DNA of 64,000 bases, taken from IMG/VR virus record IMGVR_UViG_3300031555_001562; one strand, given 5' to 3'. This DNA comes from a virus. Its lineage: Duplodnaviria; Caudoviricetes. The notes beneath the pieces are model-generated. The model was not told the DNA's origin. It saw nothing but the letters and a program-made list of their open reading frames with translations, and did not search any database. The position numbers were made by a program, and so were the translations under genes. This document shows, piece by piece, positions 27 through 6,528 of this stretch (positions are counted from its first letter, which is position 1; each line of letters begins with the position of its first letter).

Positions 27-608
27 TTATAAATATTTTTCGGAGAATTCTCTGTATGATCCAAACTCAGTCTTCCAGCCGGAAGCAATCTGAATGGGAT
101 CCAGATCATGCATCTTACATACATGTGTGATATACTCACTGTCATACAGCTTCTTTCTGCGGCGGTTCACCTTCTTGACTTCCGCAAACACATCCGCACG
201 AGAAACACCGTATTTCTTTTCGAGATACTTCGCCATATCGTTCTGGGAGTACTCAATGAACTGGCAGATAGGGCAGCATGCCTCTGGCATATCATACCTG
301 ACATCATCTATGCCAAAGTATTCATACATGAGATCATCATCGTCCATAGCTTCCAGCTCTTCTTTTGAATGCATTTCGCTGGGATCCAGACCGTCCATGT
401 TTGCCGCATAATACTCAAGAAGTGTATTGATAAAGTTCTCTCTGGGAACCTGAAGCATTTCACTTTCACAAATGGTATGACCATTCACACAGCGAATCAT
501 TTCGGCTTCAGATAGAGACATTTCCCAACCACTCTCTACTGCGCCGCAGATGTCGCAGACAAAGCTTGAGCTACTGGAATTCGTCACAAAGTCTTTTCTG
601 TATTTCAT
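27..608 (-). CDS. N-terminal 'RxDFVTNSSSSS' motif protein 5, Cys-rich (putative Zn-binding)
   Basis: Starts MKYRKDFVTNSSSSSF; contains CDIC, CVNGHTIC and CPIC motifs. Confidence 0.85.
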   Translation of the reverse strand: MKYRKDFVTNSSSSSFVCDICGAVESGWEMSLSEAEMIRCVNGHTICESEMLQVPRENFINTLLEYYAANMDGLDPSEMHSKEELEAMDDDDLMYEYFGIDDVRYDMPEACCPICQFIEYSQNDMAKYLEKKYGVSRADVFAEVKKVNRRRKKLYDSEYITHVCKMHDLDPIQIASGWKTEFGSYREFSEKYL

Positions 609-617
609 TGTATCACC

Positions 618-989
618 TTAATCGCTGGATGATTGATAGATATCTTCCTTGAACTTTCCGGGGATATGCTCATAGAGCCACGCATCATCGCCCTCAGTAT
701 CTCCGTCATTCGTCCATGAAATGAAAGAAGCGGCAAGATACTTTGCGGTGGTATCACTCTCGTCAATGCGATCCAGAACGCTACTTGCAATACAATCCAG
801 GCCAATACACTCATCGAGATAGTCCTTTAATGCCTTTGCGCCCATAAGATACTCATCGAGCAGTCTTACACCATGTTTGCCATGCTCTTCTTTCATATAG
901 TCAAGCAGCTCGTCACAATATGTAATATTCGCCACAACAATGTAGCTGGAACTACTTGAATTTGTTACAAAATCCTGCCTCAGTTTCAT
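618..989 (-). CDS. N-terminal 'RxDFVTNSSSSS' motif protein 4
   Basis: Starts MKLRQDFVTNSSSSSY; 4-nt overlap with the upstream gene. Confidence 0.85.
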   Translation of the reverse strand: MKLRQDFVTNSSSSSYIVVANITYCDELLDYMKEEHGKHGVRLLDEYLMGAKALKDYLDECIGLDCIASSVLDRIDESDTTAKYLAASFISWTNDGDTEGDDAWLYEHIPGKFKEDIYQSSSD

Positions 990-1339
990 CGATATACCTC
1001 GCCATAATCAAAAGTCAATTCATCAGGGCGAAGATCGATATTGTATTCCGTCTTTATGTCTTCTACGACTTTCTTTCTGAGATCAGTCAATGTGTGATCT
1101 TGCAGATCAGATTCATAAATTGGATAACCAACATAATTAACATCAGCGCATTCGCAAATATCAACCACGAGATTTCCCTTTAACGAAATCTGATCGTCAC
1201 CAACTTCATATGCATCACTTAATTTCTCTTTTGTAATGCCGTTTGCCAGCAAAATCAGTTCTTGCGTATTGCTGTCTACCTTTAGGCAAATGAAAGAACT
1301 GCTTCTTGAATTCGTCACATAGTCAGTACGTACTTTCAT
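986..1339 (-). CDS. N-terminal 'RxDYVTNSRSSS' motif protein 3
   Basis: Starts MKVRTDYVTNSRSSSF; 1-nt overlap with the upstream gene. Confidence 0.85.
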   Translation of the reverse strand: MKVRTDYVTNSRSSSFICLKVDSNTQELILLANGITKEKLSDAYEVGDDQISLKGNLVVDICECADVNYVGYPIYESDLQDHTLTDLRKKVVEDIKTEYNIDLRPDELTFDYGEVYR

Positions 1340-1761
1340 TAGCCATTTCTCCCTGCGCCATAATCACACTGGATATCGGCAAAACCGTTTTCTTCAGTGA
1401 TTGCATCAATCACTTGCGTATCGAAGTCACTGTAGTCAACGTAATAATCAACTTCGCCATCTTCATCGCTGTAAAGATCTTCGCAATGCGAATGCATAAC
1501 AAATCTTGCATCCATATGCTCACGAATATAATCTTTACTAGGTGTAATATCTACACCAGCCCAATCGCATTCCAGCCAATTACGCCATCTGCCTTCACCA
1601 TGCTCAATGCTGGCAAGTGCTTCTTCTGCGGTATATACTTCGATTTTTGAAGAAAACTCATTCAATACCTTTGCGGCCTTGGACTCGTCTGCGATTCTGG
1701 CAAAACACACAATATAGCTGCTAGAGCTGCTATTGGTTACATAGTCTGTCCTAATCTTCAT
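1339..1761 (-). CDS. N-terminal 'RxDYVTNSSSSS' motif protein 2
   Basis: Starts MKIRTDYVTNSSSSSY. Confidence 0.85.
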   Translation of the reverse strand: MKIRTDYVTNSSSSSYIVCFARIADESKAAKVLNEFSSKIEVYTAEEALASIEHGEGRWRNWLECDWAGVDITPSKDYIREHMDARFVMHSHCEDLYSDEDGEVDYYVDYSDFDTQVIDAITEENGFADIQCDYGAGRNG

Positions 1762-1763
1762 TA

Positions 1764-2192
1764 TTACGCACCCTCAAGGATCACGAATCCATCGTTATCC
1801 TTTGCCATAGTCTTAATGAAGCTTTCCGGGCTGCAATCGGAATCACTTACACGCTTCCTCATAATAGCATATCCATCTGCAAGATACTTGCTGGCCTCTT
1901 CATACTCTCTGCGGTAATCTTCATCATCTTCGATGATCTCCTGCACGGTATGTTTCTTCCAACCGTATCTGTCGATGAAAAACTTGTCATACTCTTCTTG
2001 CGTAGTGAATACTTCTGCAACCTGAGTATCGCAATAGTCAACCGCATCAATGAGCGCTTCAATAAGTCTCGGATACAAATTGACAAAAGGATACTTTTTC
2101 ACAGTTTCTTCGTCAACCTCTACGTTTGTACGGTAGGCAATCACAAAGCTACTGCTTGAACTGTTGGTTACGAAATCGCTTCTTACTTTCAT
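1764..2192 (-). CDS. N-terminal 'RxDFVTNSSSSS' motif protein 1
   Basis: Starts MKVRSDFVTNSSSSSF. Confidence 0.85.
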   Translation of the reverse strand: MKVRSDFVTNSSSSSFVIAYRTNVEVDEETVKKYPFVNLYPRLIEALIDAVDYCDTQVAEVFTTQEEYDKFFIDRYGWKKHTVQEIIEDDEDYRREYEEASKYLADGYAIMRKRVSDSDCSPESFIKTMAKDNDGFVILEGA

Positions 2193-2201
2193 ATACTTTC
2201 C

Positions 2202-2843
2202 TTAACTTTCATACGGAGACGGTAAACTGTAATCCCAAATTTCATAATCACCACTGTAGTGATTTCTGAAATAGTTTACTTCTCCGTCACCTCTGAACCA
2301 CAAATAATCATCCGGTAAAACCCTTCCAACATCCGTATATCCGGACTTTTCTTTGCTCCACCGGATAAGTACATCTTCTGCCAGATCGTAAAGCTCTTCA
2401 GTTACTGGTGCAGAACTGTTCCATGCAAACTGATTTGGCTTTGTAGCTGCCGCATATATGCTCTTTGAATCGCCAGCATCAACACGATTTACAATTGTCC
2501 ATGCAACACATGCCTGTTGTGTAACGCTCTTAACACCACGACATTCTTCCCAAAGAACTTTCGCAACTACTATTACATCATCTTCAGTAAAGTAATATAC
2601 AATCTCCGGTTCGGTACATTCAGTTTCAACAATCACTTCCAGTTCCGGGGGTTCCGTTTCTGGTTCTGTAGTTTCTACTGGTTCCGTAACACATGTAGTT
2701 TCAGCTATAGTTTCTTCTGTGGGAACAGTCGTAGATTTTGGTGCTGTATATTGCGGATCATATGTATCAATAGCTGCAATACCAATCATCAATAATACAA
2801 TGGCAACGATCAGCATCAGATATATGTTATATTTGTCGCTCAA
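2202..2843 (-). CDS. Membrane-anchored cell wall hydrolase (SleB/Hydrolase_2-like)
   Basis: N-terminal hydrophobic helix, T/E/P-rich linker, then AKVLWEECRG...VAWTIVNRV...PNQF typical of SleB/CwlJ catalytic domains. Confidence 0.75.
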   Translation of the reverse strand: MSDKYNIYLMLIVAIVLLMIGIAAIDTYDPQYTAPKSTTVPTEETIAETTCVTEPVETTEPETEPPELEVIVETECTEPEIVYYFTEDDVIVVAKVLWEECRGVKSVTQQACVAWTIVNRVDAGDSKSIYAAATKPNQFAWNSSAPVTEELYDLAEDVLIRWSKEKSGYTDVGRVLPDDYLWFRGDGEVNYFRNHYSGDYEIWDYSLPSPYES

Positions 2844-3904
2844 ACCAAATCTTTCTCCTGTCTATTGCAGATAACGATGTCTCTACAAATAGGACATCCG
2901 CCAGCACAAGTCGCTCTGGAGGGGCAGGATGCACAAGAATATCTCAGAGAATTTCTGAACTTCTCAAACACTTCTCCATCCCAAGCTTCTTGGATGGTAT
3001 GATTCTTCAGACTGACAAAGTACTTCGGATCCTGATTGCCAAAAGAACATGGCATTGCATTCATACTCGCATCAATGTACATGCTGTGCCTTCCGCCCTC
3101 GCAATAATCCATGCTGTCCAGATTGATCTTACTTGTAAAGTTCACGATACCAGAGCAAGAGCAGCTGTCGAAGCCGATCTTGTGGTGGAACTTACCTGTG
3201 TCAATCAGTTCGAAGAACTCTTTGACTTTGGGATTATCATAAGTCAATATGTTCTCCATCTTGCCCAGGCCAATAGGCTTATACAGCAAGAAAACCACCG
3301 CATTAATACCCATCTTGAAGCTATTTGTTCTCAACTTCTGGATTGCATCATCAATGGTTTTCGCACTCAATACATAGTGAATATTCGTCTTTACACCAGC
3401 ATCCAGAAGCATATCAATTGCTCCATTGGTATAAGGTGCAAAGTGTTCACTCACTGCAATTGCACCACAGTACTTCTTACAGACCTCAGCCTTTTCCTTT
3501 GTCATAGCAATACCAGAGGTTGTAAAGTTAGGAATGATACCATGCTCTCTGGTTGCCTTTAGAATCTCTTCAAAATTTTCATGCGTGTCCACATCCCCCG
3601 CACCGCCCAGGGCGACCTGAAGAACCTTACCTTTGCACTGTTCCATAATACTCAGGTAGTTCTCAAGACTCATATTGGAGCCGGTTCGATCAATGGCTTT
3701 CTGGTAGCAGTCAACGTTGCACTTGTGCGCACATACGCATCGCTCCATAATACCGATATCGATCAGTGAAGGGAAGCATCGCATAAAAGGATCGATACCA
3801 GTATCTTTACCTTCAGCATCGATCACACCGCTGCGAACATAAAATCCTGTATCCGGATTGAAAAGTTCAACAAAACGGTTCTTTTTGTCAATGAATCTAA
3901 TCAC
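2840..3904 (-). CDS. Radical SAM protein with SPASM domain
   Basis: Cys triad CAHKCNVDC (CX3CX3C variant), ALGGAGD motif, C-terminal CEGG...PCSF...CASC...CAGGCP. Confidence 0.9.
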   Translation of the reverse strand: MIRFIDKKNRFVELFNPDTGFYVRSGVIDAEGKDTGIDPFMRCFPSLIDIGIMERCVCAHKCNVDCYQKAIDRTGSNMSLENYLSIMEQCKGKVLQVALGGAGDVDTHENFEEILKATREHGIIPNFTTSGIAMTKEKAEVCKKYCGAIAVSEHFAPYTNGAIDMLLDAGVKTNIHYVLSAKTIDDAIQKLRTNSFKMGINAVVFLLYKPIGLGKMENILTYDNPKVKEFFELIDTGKFHHKIGFDSCSCSGIVNFTSKINLDSMDYCEGGRHSMYIDASMNAMPCSFGNQDPKYFVSLKNHTIQEAWDGEVFEKFRNSLRYSCASCPSRATCAGGCPICRDIVICNRQEKDLV

Positions 3905-3926
3905 TTGTTGTCCTCTTGATTTCTAA

Positions 3927-3974
3927 ACACTATATATTGTGGTTATACCAAACACCAAACACAATATCTAGGTT
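3927..3974. promoter_or_regulatory. Tandem NrdR-box-like operators upstream of the radical SAM gene
   Basis: ACACTATATATTGTGG (3927-3942) and ACACAATATCTAGGTT (3959-3974), starts 32 bp apart; match the NrdR consensus acaCwAtATaTwGtgt and its usual tandem spacing. Confidence 0.7.
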
Positions 3975-3998: not shown

Positions 3999-4241
3999 TC
4001 ATTCAGTCTTGCATTTGATGTCGCAATAGGGATCGATCAGGGATACGGGCTTCCTGCATTCTGGAGGGCATGTGCAATTCGGCAGATATGCCCGTGATTC
4101 ACATTCTGAAAAGTCATGATCTCTTCCGCAAAACAAATCACATCTGAAACAATTCCTTTCAACGTATGCCTTCTTGATTGCCTGATTGTTTGGTGTATCA
4201 ATCCGCAATCCTTTATACTTTTTAGGATGCACGTATTCCAT
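3999..4241 (-). CDS. Small Cys-rich hypothetical protein
   Basis: ORF from MEYVHPKK, CFRCDLFC motif; overlaps the 3' end of RT. Confidence 0.55.
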   Translation of the reverse strand: MEYVHPKKYKGLRIDTPNNQAIKKAYVERNCFRCDLFCGRDHDFSECESRAYLPNCTCPPECRKPVSLIDPYCDIKCKTE

Positions 4242-5277
4242 GATCTTCTCCTTCGTTTTCAAAGAGCGAGTCAACAAATTGATCCATGCTGCATATCAAC
4301 TTATAGCAGTTGCCGTGCGACGCATGATTCTTCCACGAACCATACTTTTCGTAGAATTTTTCTTTCGTCATCTTACCGCTCTTTACGAGCTTCGCATTTT
4401 TGCGTAAGCGTTTCTTGATCTGACGTTTGTTATCTCCGGTCAGCTTCCGGATGACCTTGCCATCTTCTGTGATGTATGTATGAAACCCTAAGAATCTAAT
4501 GCCTTTTCTTAGCGGAACAATCTCTGTCTTATCGTTCAAAGTCAGACACAAACCAGCTAAGTACTCTTCAATTTTCTTCAGACAATCTTTTAGATATTCT
4601 TTATCATCAGAAATCAGGTAGAAGTCATCCATGTATCTGCCGTAATACTCGCAGCCAAGATCCTCGGTGATGAAGTAATCAAGTCCGGTCAGATACATCA
4701 GTGCAAACACCTGGCTACTTTGATTGCCGAGCGGCAGACCATCTCCGTCCACACTATCAACAAACAAGTTGCAGATCCATTGAATATCTTCATCCGGGAA
4801 GTACACCCGGATAATTCTCTTCATAATATCGTGATTGATACTGTAAAAGAATTTTGTGATATCGCACTTGAGTATGTATCCTTCGCAGCCATGATTGTCA
4901 TAAAAATCAAGTAGATTTTCTGACAAGCGATCTAGGCCAAATAAGGTTCCTTTGCCTATTTGACCAGCATAGTTGTCGAGAAGAAAGATGTCTTTCATCT
5001 TCGGCAACAATACATAGTCACACAGGCAGTGTTGCAGAACCTTATCTCTAAAAGCGCCAGAAGTAATAAGCCTTTTCTTTGGTTCAGAAATAATAAACTG
5101 AGAATACTTAGATATCTCATATGTGTGTTCAATGAGTTGACGCTTCATCCTGTAAAGGTTTTCTAGCGCCAACACACTGAACTGGATTGCGCTTTTCTTC
5201 TTACCCTTGCCTCGCATTGAGACAGTGTAAGAGGCATACAGATTCTCAAAGTCTATTAGCTTCTGAAAATCTTCCAT
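4222..5277 (-). CDS. DGR reverse transcriptase
   Basis: FRDKVLQH, KCDITKFFYSI, GLPLGNQSSQ, YYGRYMDD and FLGF motifs; adjacent to TR and avd. Confidence 0.95.
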   Translation of the reverse strand: MEDFQKLIDFENLYASYTVSMRGKGKKKSAIQFSVLALENLYRMKRQLIEHTYEISKYSQFIISEPKKRLITSGAFRDKVLQHCLCDYVLLPKMKDIFLLDNYAGQIGKGTLFGLDRLSENLLDFYDNHGCEGYILKCDITKFFYSINHDIMKRIIRVYFPDEDIQWICNLFVDSVDGDGLPLGNQSSQVFALMYLTGLDYFITEDLGCEYYGRYMDDFYLISDDKEYLKDCLKKIEEYLAGLCLTLNDKTEIVPLRKGIRFLGFHTYITEDGKVIRKLTGDNKRQIKKRLRKNAKLVKSGKMTKEKFYEKYGSWKNHASHGNCYKLICSMDQFVDSLFENEGEDHGIRAS

Positions 5278-5498: not shown

Positions 5499-5867
5499 TT
5501 AGGTCTTCTTCCGCCACGCAAGCGTCATATGTTTTATGTCGTATGCGAGGCCAGTCCATTGTTCGCTCATAGCGGCGCTTATTAACTTGGCATGCAAGCT
5601 GTATCTCACCAGGCTCAAGAATTTATTGCATTCCGTTATTGCTAAGGTTTGCTTTTCTATTCTTTTGGCTCTGTGTCCCTCTGAATCAGGAACATAGGAA
5701 TTTGCGTCCAGCAAATACCCATATATGTTCAAAGAGATCTCCTGAAGTTTATCTGTAATCCGCCGATACCTTACTGGATAGTGTTGGCGAATAGTAGTAA
5801 TATCAAAGACTGAAAAATACAGCTGCTCTGCCTTATTGCCTATTTCAAATCTTACTTCTTCACTCAT
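5499..5867 (-). CDS. avd: DGR accessory variability determinant (Avd, four-helix bundle)
   Basis: 122 aa helical protein between target and TR; HYPVRYR...IYGYLLDAN...AWRK pattern. Confidence 0.85.
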   Translation of the reverse strand: MSEEVRFEIGNKAEQLYFSVFDITTIRQHYPVRYRRITDKLQEISLNIYGYLLDANSYVPDSEGHRAKRIEKQTLAITECNKFLSLVRYSLHAKLISAAMSEQWTGLAYDIKHMTLAWRKKT

Positions 5868-5875
5868 TTGTTATC

Positions 5876-6333
5876 TCACTCTACCAAGAGGGAAGAGTCG
5901 AGGATCAAGAACGGACGGACACCGTTGCCCCAACCACAGACATTCCAAAGCAGAATGCCATCAGAGCTGACGTAGCAAACGCTGCCAGTATAACCAGATA
6001 CCTCAGCGGTGACTCTGGTTGCAGTCCACCATGCTTCGCCCATTGCCTTCAGGAACTTCCGGTAACGGCGATACCGATCAGTAGTCAGAATGGACACGAA
6101 ACCCTCAACGGTCTTGATACCAGTGCCATCGTCTGCGGTCAGATCGACGGTATGACGGATGATATTCTCAGCACCCACCGACTTGACCATCTCGTTGTAG
6201 AAGTCATTGATACAGTAGCTGCGAACATCGCTGGTCTCATAGTCGCCGGTGGAACCATATTCCATACGCTTAACGAAATCCTTGGCAATTACTGCGGTTC
6301 CATGTTCGGTGTGTTCCAGGACAATGAACTCAC
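5876..6333 (-). pseudogene. DGR target 1, 3' portion (5' portion lies inverted at 6629-6780 on +)
   Basis: EFIVLEH...WWTAT...GVRP, paralogous to 27463-28101; the N-terminus of track ORF 5876..6499 is not real. Confidence 0.85.
5908..5989 (-). repeat. DGR variable repeat VR1
   Basis: 8 mismatches to TR in 82 nt, all at TR adenines (coding strand). Confidence 0.95.
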
Positions 6334-6528
6334 CTGCTGAAGGCAAAAGATAAGGCAATCGAACTGGGTCTGATCGAGGGCGAACAGTTTGGCCTGATCT
6401 ATGATAACTGCATGACAGAGCTTGTTCCGGAAGAAGAAAATGGAACGACTCTGACTGGAATCTGGTTCTGTCCTTTACCTGATGAGGTTGCACACACAAT
6501 TAGTAAAAAATATCAGCTATATCGTTAA
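6331..6528 (+). pseudogene. Peptidyl-tRNA hydrolase Pth2, displaced 3' portion
   Basis: Reads HLLKAKDKAIELGL...IYDNCMTEL...TLTGIWFCPLPDEVAHTISKKYQLYR*, resembling the C-terminal half of Pth2. Confidence 0.85.

Follow-up and report, generated by a model that had tools for sequence, protein, structure and literature searches.

The locus considered here raises the question of why five neighboring phage genes encode products that begin alike and then differ. It lies in a window of 64,000 nucleotides (the whole stretch of DNA that was analyzed) from the minus strand of a complete 163,674-bp virus record of the Caudoviricetes (IMGVR_UViG_3300031555_001562), in which an operon on the minus strand carries a gene for a radical S-adenosylmethionine (SAM) enzyme with a SPASM domain and five genes whose products share an N-terminal motif of 16 residues, referred to below as the tag. 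We consider it probable, if well short of certain, that these 16 residues form a portable tag at which the radical SAM/SPASM enzyme of the same operon recognizes and modifies its substrates. The assignment of tag to enzyme was drawn from the co-occurrence of the two in searches started from either side, the strict N-terminal placement of the tag on unrelated protein bodies, and a predicted complex with clean controls.

One N-terminus on unrelated protein bodies

A sequence-only reading of the window had described five tandem, tightly coupled genes (117 to 193 aa) that share only an N-terminal motif and follow a radical SAM/SPASM gene. Open reading frames (ORFs) and BLAST clusters confirmed the first part. 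The second needs an amendment: the radical SAM gene is present, but a 213-aa gene that had gone unmentioned intervenes, so that the tightly packed run in the ORF listing consists of the radical SAM/SPASM gene, the 213-aa gene and the five tagged genes, with junctions ranging from a 4-nt overlap to a 9-nt gap. The five products share the start MK[VILY]R[STQK]D[FY]VTNS[SR]SSS[FY], and a purine-rich Shine-Dalgarno-like stretch precedes every one of the five tag-gene starts. These five copies of the tag are the only ones in the window and in the whole virus record. Forced alignment of the five proteins gave 26 to 33% identity, mostly contributed by the tag, and with residues 1 to 20 removed they fell into five separate BLAST clusters. 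The 48-nt DNA of the tag was 56 to 71% identical between copies, and its serine codons mix AGY and TCN, which points to selection on the peptide, i.e., to conservation at the protein level rather than to a DNA repeat.

Across all variants collected, the tag has the consensus M-K-x-R-x-D-[F/Y]-V-T-N-S-S-S-[S/T]-S-[F/Y], in which F/Y7-V8-T9-N10-S11 and S13 are constant, positions 4, 6, 14, 15, and 16 vary, and S12 is replaced by Arg in one copy of the window. All 485 occurrences of the core motif stood 6 codons after the start position, with ATG at that position in 451; those listed without ATG had V, L, or I in its place, as GTG, TTG, or ATT starts would give. A tag profile of 32 columns, searched against 1.84 billion representatives at E ≤ 0.001, matched 22,271 clusters at 50% identity, nearly all at residues 1 to 30. 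A few database proteins (P0241, P0245, P0260, and P0264) were matched twice, once internally (e.g., at residues 180 to 208 of 288), and these are probably adjacent tag genes fused by gene calling or frameshifts.

Behind the tag, the proteins differ widely. Residues past position 20 of 426 tagged proteins formed at least 69 clusters unrelated by BLAST, and protein length had a median of 139 aa and reached over 1,800 aa. Long tagged proteins bear LRR_5 (BspA-type leucine-rich repeat, LRR), TIR_2, or BRCT domains, and in some tagged proteins a membrane helix directly follows the tag. In three bacterial contigs (L211:1186-3414, L180:3-7816, and L236:1301-3304), the tag was found on a 743-aa TIR protein, two BspA-type LRR proteins (777 aa and at least 1,814 aa), and a 668-aa BRCT protein, each adjoining a radical SAM gene. 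Each of the five proteins of the window (numbered as in Table 1) belongs to a body cluster of its own: that of protein 1 is the largest of all, with 85 members, and the others are those of protein 5 (48 members, 46 of them viral), protein 2 (26, of which 25 are viral), protein 3 (18), and protein 4 (11). In the ESM Atlas, matches to protein 5 were viral hypothetical clusters only. Scans of the five proteins against Pfam, NCBIfam, PHROGs, and PADLOC yielded a weak N-terminal match to phrog_7397 (function unknown) and nothing else; the tag has no model in Pfam, NCBIfam, or PADLOC, and this one in PHROGs. Among 109 further tagged proteins, a Pfam scan gave four single-member matches at chance level.

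We also modeled the 142-aa protein 1 with AlphaFold2 from 36 relatives. The monomer (pLDDT [predicted local distance difference test] 85) has a small alpha/beta body. Tag residues 1 to 11 had a pLDDT below 50 and made no contact with the body, and residues 13 to 20 formed its first strand, an arrangement that fits a segment that becomes ordered on a partner. Foldseek found no match to this model in the PDB at E ≤ 0.001, and VIA-align wide returned generic ferredoxin-like alpha/beta rows only (best Z, 5.3). The strand at residues 13 to 20 could instead mean that the tagged proteins are old paralogs of one fold, with the motif a conserved element of that fold or of an active site, e.g., a phosphate-binding serine loop, and many of the small bodies are indeed alpha/beta and alike in size. 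We regard this as very improbable, as it would have to accommodate bodies that span LRR, TIR, BRCT, and membrane proteins of up to at least 1,814 aa in 69 BLAST-unrelated clusters, as well as a disordered segment 1 to 11 free of the body, and it leaves both the strict position relative to the start codon and the linkage to a radical SAM gene unexplained.

Co-occurrence of the tag and the enzyme

Using a degenerate DNA pattern for the tag alone, we found at least 113 viral stretches with 295 tag ORFs in arrays of 1 to 7. A radical SAM homolog lay on the same strand in 64 of these 113 stretches, mostly no more than 2.4 kb upstream of the first tag gene, which it often overlapped, and most of the stretches without one end less than 1.2 kb upstream of the tag genes. 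The full records behind such stretches, 42 in number, were then considered: 31 encode a radical SAM homolog elsewhere in the record, and one is present in 12 of the 13 that are at least 90% complete. Viral records with the tag ranged from 100 to 504 kb. The same DNA pattern retrieved at least 120 stretches from bacterial and archaeal genomes, 94 of which had a radical SAM homolog within the 8-kb piece; when 10 genomes without a local homolog were rechecked, 7 had one elsewhere in the genome. Hosts included Clostridia, Negativicutes, Coriobacteriia, Bacteroidota, metagenome-assembled genomes (MAGs) of Desulfobacterota, Synergistaceae, and one methanogen, Methanoculleus.

The search was also run in reverse. 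A profile of the radical SAM enzyme, applied to 399 Clostridia genomes, gave 10 matches, 9 of them at new loci, and a tag gene was adjacent at 8 of these 9. Loci found through the enzyme included the tag variants MKIRTGFVTNSSSTNF and MKIRGDFVTNSSSVSY, which the DNA pattern could not have reached. Identity of the radical SAM homologs was 34 to 77%, with the lowest values at 34 to 39%, and the block of enzyme and tag stayed constant while the flanking genes varied among loci. The sequence-only reading had held that its proposal would fall if motif proteins occurred mostly without the radical SAM gene; instead, the two co-occurred in both directions, and did so in phages, in bacteria, and in one archaeon.

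The internal proteins of phage T4 are likewise tandem products that diverge fast and have only a short N-terminus in common; this capsid-targeting sequence is cleaved by the prohead protease and requires no radical SAM enzyme. By this likeness, the tag could be a signal for other machinery, such as capsid targeting, export, or degradation, and the radical SAM enzyme a syntenic neighbor with an unrelated job; the membrane helix right after the tag in some proteins would suit such a signal. We think this quite improbable. Unlike the T4 sequence, the tag also occurs in nonviral cellular operons, and its pairing with the enzyme is kept in bacterial and archaeal STAND NTPase loci without virion genes, with differing flanks, and when the enzyme starts the search. 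To judge by its sequence, the tag is hydrophilic, unlike a signal peptide, and the docking controls described below were clean. Given that tag and enzyme are paired in many phages, in bacteria, and in an archaeon, and that no described family was matched, they probably belong to an uncharacterized protein-modification system.

The enzyme and its predicted complex with the tag

The enzyme of the window passed the cut-offs for the SPASM model PF13186 (29.3 bits; cut-off, 21.5) and for TIGR04085 (27.5; cut-off, 27). With the radical SAM model PF04055 it scored 24.8 bits, below the gathering cut-off of 29.5, but an Arenibacter homolog (38% identity, tblastn) scored 56.5 bits, and we therefore regard the family as a diverged radical SAM clade. 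It comprises at least 2,795 clusters at 90% identity, all generically named. Solved structures are remote, the best PDB match being SkfB (E = 6.6e-8), and PqqE, MftC, and SkfB are among its weak sequence matches. The SPASM motif (C324-x2-C327-x5-C333-x3-C337 ... C346, plus C248, C268, and C286) was 98 to 100% conserved in 133 homologs. A glycine-rich A98-L99-G100-G101-x-G103, conserved to the same degree in these homologs and invariant in 30 diverse sequences, would by analogy be the SAM-binding (GGE-like) motif.

The N-terminal cluster motif reads C56-x-C58-x3-C62-x3-C66. The CX3CX3C spacing that the sequence-only reading had assigned to it is correct for the window copy, as one possible reading of one variant of a drifting loop. 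Among the 133 relatives, only C56 and C66 were invariant and the middle cysteine shifted position: 103 had Cx7Cx6C, 15 (the clade of the window) CxCx3Cx3C, 9 the canonical Cx3Cx2C, which is a property of a cellular clade, and 6 one of four rare spacings. Three or four cysteines, the putative cluster ligands, were always found from C56 through C66. In two bacterial homologs (L200 and L178), a single in-frame stop stood at an otherwise conserved position (GDPD*HEQ, and C*Q at the conserved C-Y-Q); these genes may be pseudogenes or contain assembly errors. Selenocysteine was considered for a Sporomusa homolog and rejected, the apparent in-frame stop being a TAA at the natural gene end.

We next predicted the complex of the enzyme with the 142-aa protein, SAM, and three 4Fe-4S clusters. 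The docking score was 0.70 (runs, 0.73, 0.69, and 0.70), compared to 0.00 for the best of three controls; in calibration, 58 of 80 solved complexes attained the docking mark, as did 2 of 110 mismatched pairs. The runs shared at least 60% of contacts, and the partner pLDDT was at least 52. On the partner side, the confident interface consisted of residues 1 to 11 only, with contacts ending at S11. On the enzyme side, it comprised residues 19 to 26, 34 to 38, 47, 49, 96, 98, 124 to 128, 147 to 150, 172 to 176, 201 to 206, 242, 246, and 263 to 266. Of these 35 residues, 23 coincide with positions that comparison of the homologs had beforehand shown to be conserved at 90% or more, 86 in total (Fisher P = 4e-8). 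K2 of the tag contacted enzyme residues 23 and 24, 38, and 263 to 266 with low expected error. Although solved complexes of radical SAM enzymes with peptides may have shaped the model, the docking supports, at the level of a prediction, binding of the tag to the enzyme cleft. The strict N-terminal placement fits contacts made by Met1 itself; a lysine at position 2 should block removal of this methionine.

The mechanism we propose starts from the flexible free N-terminus, of which residues 1 to 11 would extend as a strand against the conserved enzyme strand G20 to G26, M1 to D6 pairing with residues 20 to 26, and in which K2 and R4 would face the conserved acidic residues D38 and D266 in salt bridges. 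The invariant F/Y-V-T-N-S core would enter the cleft that separates the SAM barrel from the SPASM domain. There, one of the core residues would lose a hydrogen to the 5'-deoxyadenosyl radical, and the electron would pass to the auxiliary clusters of the SPASM domain. The product might be an oxidized serine or threonine, as made by the anaerobic sulfatase-maturating enzyme (anSME), or a carbon-carbon or ether crosslink at the conserved aromatic residue, as made by cyclophane- or ether-forming SPASM enzymes. One enzyme could in this way mature many unrelated proteins, five in the phage of the window and LRR, TIR, BRCT, and membrane proteins elsewhere.

The same co-occurrence and docking data would also be accounted for if the tag docked to the enzyme without being its substrate. 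The bodies would then act as exchangeable subunits (adaptors, regulators, or plugs) that either bring other targets, i.e., host proteins, nucleic acids, or small molecules, to one catalytic core or gate its activity. LRR and BRCT bodies are binding modules, and arrays of 1 to 7 different tagged proteins per enzyme would suit specificity subunits. SPASM enzymes, as in the SuiB and CteB structures, hold their substrates in a cleft at the SAM barrel and the start of the SPASM domain, and the docking model places residues 1 to 11 in just such a conserved cleft, bordered by strands of the SAM barrel and the SPASM start. Moreover, the near invariance of F/Y-V-T-N-S-S-S, small polar residues included, exceeds what a mere anchor usually needs. 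A docking-only role thus appears unlikely to us, though less so than the two alternatives above, and we continue to favor the tag as the site of both recognition and modification.

Several points weigh against this preference. The subthreshold PF04055 score and the noncanonical cluster spacing mean that enzyme activity is assumed, and since the tag contains neither a cysteine nor the anSME motif, the chemistry cannot be read by analogy. The docking score of 0.70 is the model's own confidence, obtained from alignments unpaired by genome and with small molecules outside the tool's calibration. No radical SAM homolog was detectable in 11 of the 42 viral records, one of them 92% complete, or in 3 of the 10 rechecked genomes with a tag gene, and one radical SAM locus (L260) had no tag gene within 8 kb. 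Many matches come from related large phages of Clostridia or possibly from phage contigs in MAGs, so that independent events are fewer than the counts suggest. As for the conflict role discussed below, it is based solely on neighboring genes. The earlier proposal that the motif is the substrate tag of this enzyme stands as regards the association of the two (co-occurrence, N-terminal placement, and docking of residues 1 to 11); the modification itself, which that proposal placed at the Asn-Ser run, is what we infer beyond it, along with in vivo binding, catalytic activity and its chemistry, and the function of the system. Its further suggestion, that the five products may form one complex, drew no support from these data.

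Relation to known systems and genomic context

Radical SAM/SPASM enzymes are known to mature short peptides and a few dedicated proteins. As a radical SAM/SPASM maturase whose presumed substrate is genetically linked to it, the present enzyme is of a known kind; unusual, and unreported, is the tag, which is portable and heads whole proteins that are unrelated to one another. The closest functional analogs are anSME, the HXS system, leader-guided maturases of ribosomally synthesized and posttranslationally modified peptides (RiPPs), and the FxSxx systems, each of which differs in motif, position, and the nature of the substrate. anSME (AtsB and ChuR) is a radical SAM/SPASM enzyme that oxidizes a serine or cysteine side chain at a short motif of whole folded proteins, and the enzyme of the window likewise has the full set of SPASM cysteines. 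However, the anSME motif (C/S-x-P/A-x-R) is missing from the tag, the substrates of anSME form one enzyme family rather than many unrelated proteins with a strictly N-terminal tag, and the cluster spacing of the window enzyme is noncanonical. No anSME model was among the NCBIfam matches of the enzyme at E ≤ 0.1, and no sulfatase gene was found nearby.

The leader-guided radical SAM/SPASM maturases of RiPPs include SuiB/StrB, CteB, PqqE, MftC, the three-residue cyclophane-forming enzymes (3-CyFE), and DarE. Here, too, the genes for enzyme and substrate are adjacent, and recognition proceeds through a conserved N-terminal sequence that is bound as an extra strand. By eye, [F/Y]7-V8-T9 fits the aromatic-X-X core of cyclophane (triceptide) substrates, with an aromatic residue followed by a polar one two positions on; no 3-CyFE-specific model matched the enzyme in the NCBIfam scans. 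The tagged substrates differ in being full-length proteins of about 100 to over 1,800 aa instead of short peptides, and in that recognition and presumed modification site coincide in the same 11 to 16 extreme N-terminal residues. Neither Pfam nor NCBIfam gave a match to a PqqD-like RiPP recognition element in the enzyme.

Literature searches with the tag strings returned no relevant paper, and keyword searches returned no description of the tag; the latter surfaced HXS, Ophion (a viperin-like radical SAM enzyme with PHP and phosphoribosyltransferase partners), and the VMAP FxSxx systems, none of which contains the tag. Database and literature searches thus agree with the earlier statement that no characterized pathway has this architecture. 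In the HXS antiphage system, the effector HxsA is matured by the radical SAM enzymes HxsB and HxsC (PMC13128918). This bacterial system has two radical SAM enzymes plus HxsD and only one effector, which contains His-Xaa-Ser repeats as well as a peptidoglycan-binding domain (PMC13128918), whereas the present one has one radical SAM enzyme, a 16-residue N-terminal tag, dozens of body types, and phage-encoded arrays. No HxS repeats occur in the five proteins of the window, and no Hxs model was matched in the NCBIfam and PADLOC scans. VMAP-ternary conflict systems pair an FxSxx peptide with a radical SAM-SPASM gene (Kaur et al. 2020, PMC7159879); as here, these predicted conflict systems combine the enzyme with STAND-type NTPases and with a short peptide motif that is conserved. 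Their motif, however, lies in a C-terminal peptide processed by a metallopeptidase, in vWA-MoxR systems (PMC7159879). No such genes were seen at the tag loci, and the motif and its position differ. In PADLOC-DB 2.0, the radical SAM enzyme gave only weak pVip matches (E = 6.6e-6 and 1.9e-11) and the tagged proteins none of note.

A conserved operon, a candidate undescribed defense system, is found in the cellular clade that keeps the canonical cluster motif. It encodes a STAND NTPase, a 131- to 171-aa protein, a tagged protein of about 138 aa, the radical SAM enzyme, and often a protein of about 305 aa with a C-terminal PF21648 domain (integron cassette protein-like). The STAND/NACHT NTPases (470 to 1,050 aa) gave NACHT matches and were Avs2-like in PADLOC, with Avs2 matched at 9.4e-32 by the 880-aa protein adjoining the Arenibacter radical SAM gene. 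Phage tag arrays adjoin SIR2-type genes and genes for NAD+ salvage, the latter of a counterdefense type. Both the STAND-linked cellular operon and the occurrence of the tag on TIR and LRR proteins suggest a conflict system, which probably takes part in phage-host conflict and of which the STAND-linked cellular form is ancestor-like; that the phage arrays serve counterdefense is plausible. A tentative extension, which we think rather doubtful at present, is that a single radical SAM/SPASM enzyme modifies the free N-termini of dozens of unrelated proteins and thereby switches on immune effectors or sensors (TIR, LRR, and STAND-linked) in bacteria and archaea, and that phages captured it for counterdefense arrays. 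If so, it would constitute a new layer of posttranslational control in phage-host conflict and a genetically encoded tag chemistry. As it stands, one enzyme family is linked to an N-terminal tag on tens of thousands of protein clusters with unrelated folds, none annotated. Modification of the tag would represent new protein chemistry on a free N-terminus. The pairing would also give a first functional handle on a large block of phage "dark matter" genes and indicate a STAND-linked conflict system that is new, along with the form of it that phages carry; site-specific protein modification might likewise profit from a tag of 16 residues served by one enzyme.

Features of the window and the cellular operon loci are listed in Table 1.

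Table 1. Positions of the operon, its upstream region, and related cellular loci (window coordinates unless a locus is named)
Feature	Position	Strand	Description
Radical SAM/SPASM enzyme	2840..3904	-	354 aa, GTG start; PF13186 and TIGR04085 above cut-offs
213-aa hydrolase-like protein	2202..2843	-	N-terminal membrane helix; weak PF07486 (cell-wall hydrolase); phrog_30550
Tagged protein 1	1764..2192	-	142 aa, N-terminus MKVRSDFVTNSSSSSF; small alpha/beta domain body
Tagged protein 2	1339..1761	-	140 aa, N-terminus MKIRTDYVTNSSSSSY
Tagged protein 3	986..1339	-	117 aa, N-terminus MKVRTDYVTNSRSSSF; natural S12R tag variant
Tagged protein 4	618..989	-	123 aa, N-terminus MKLRQDFVTNSSSSSY
Tagged protein 5	27..608	-	193 aa, N-terminus MKYRKDFVTNSSSSSF; Cys-rich body (CxxC...CxxxHxxC...CCPxC)
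Two NrdR-box-like 16-mers, 32 bp apart	3927..3974	.	just upstream of the radical SAM GTG start
Reverse transcriptase	4222..5277		351 aa, directly upstream of the operon
122-aa and 207-aa ORFs	5499..6499		after the reverse transcriptase
Cellular STAND/tag/radical SAM operon loci	L188:1266-5796, L149:55-4281, L139, L141, L187, L189, L193, L261		candidate defense system

The 213-aa gene, which overlaps the radical SAM stop by 4 nt, matched PF07486 below the cut-off (E = 0.0044) and phrog_30550 (E = 3.5e-37). It was considered as a component of the system and rejected, as no homolog was found beside the radical SAM gene in 233 other loci; its product probably stands outside the enzyme-tag system. 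The NrdR-box-like 16-mers have 1 and 3 mismatches to ACACWATATATWGTGT, and the window contains 4 such matches compared to 1.09 expected. A similar box lay upstream of the radical SAM gene in just 3 of 122 other loci, one of which, a viral locus (L059), has three boxes. NrdR boxes were accordingly rejected as a general regulator of the system; in the lineage of the window phage only, they are possibly the operator of the operon.

In two relatives of the window phage (L010 and L013, 11130-15089), the block of radical SAM and tag genes is directly followed by isochorismatase/PncA-like, phosphoribosyltransferase, NAMPT, and NAD synthase genes and preceded by a gene with a SIR2 domain. In the window itself, the reverse transcriptase matched best the PHROGs reverse-transcriptase family phrog_1423 (E = 3.8e-104) and, weakly, group II intron and Drt3a models; with the two ORFs that follow it as accessory and target genes, it could make up a diversity-generating retroelement.

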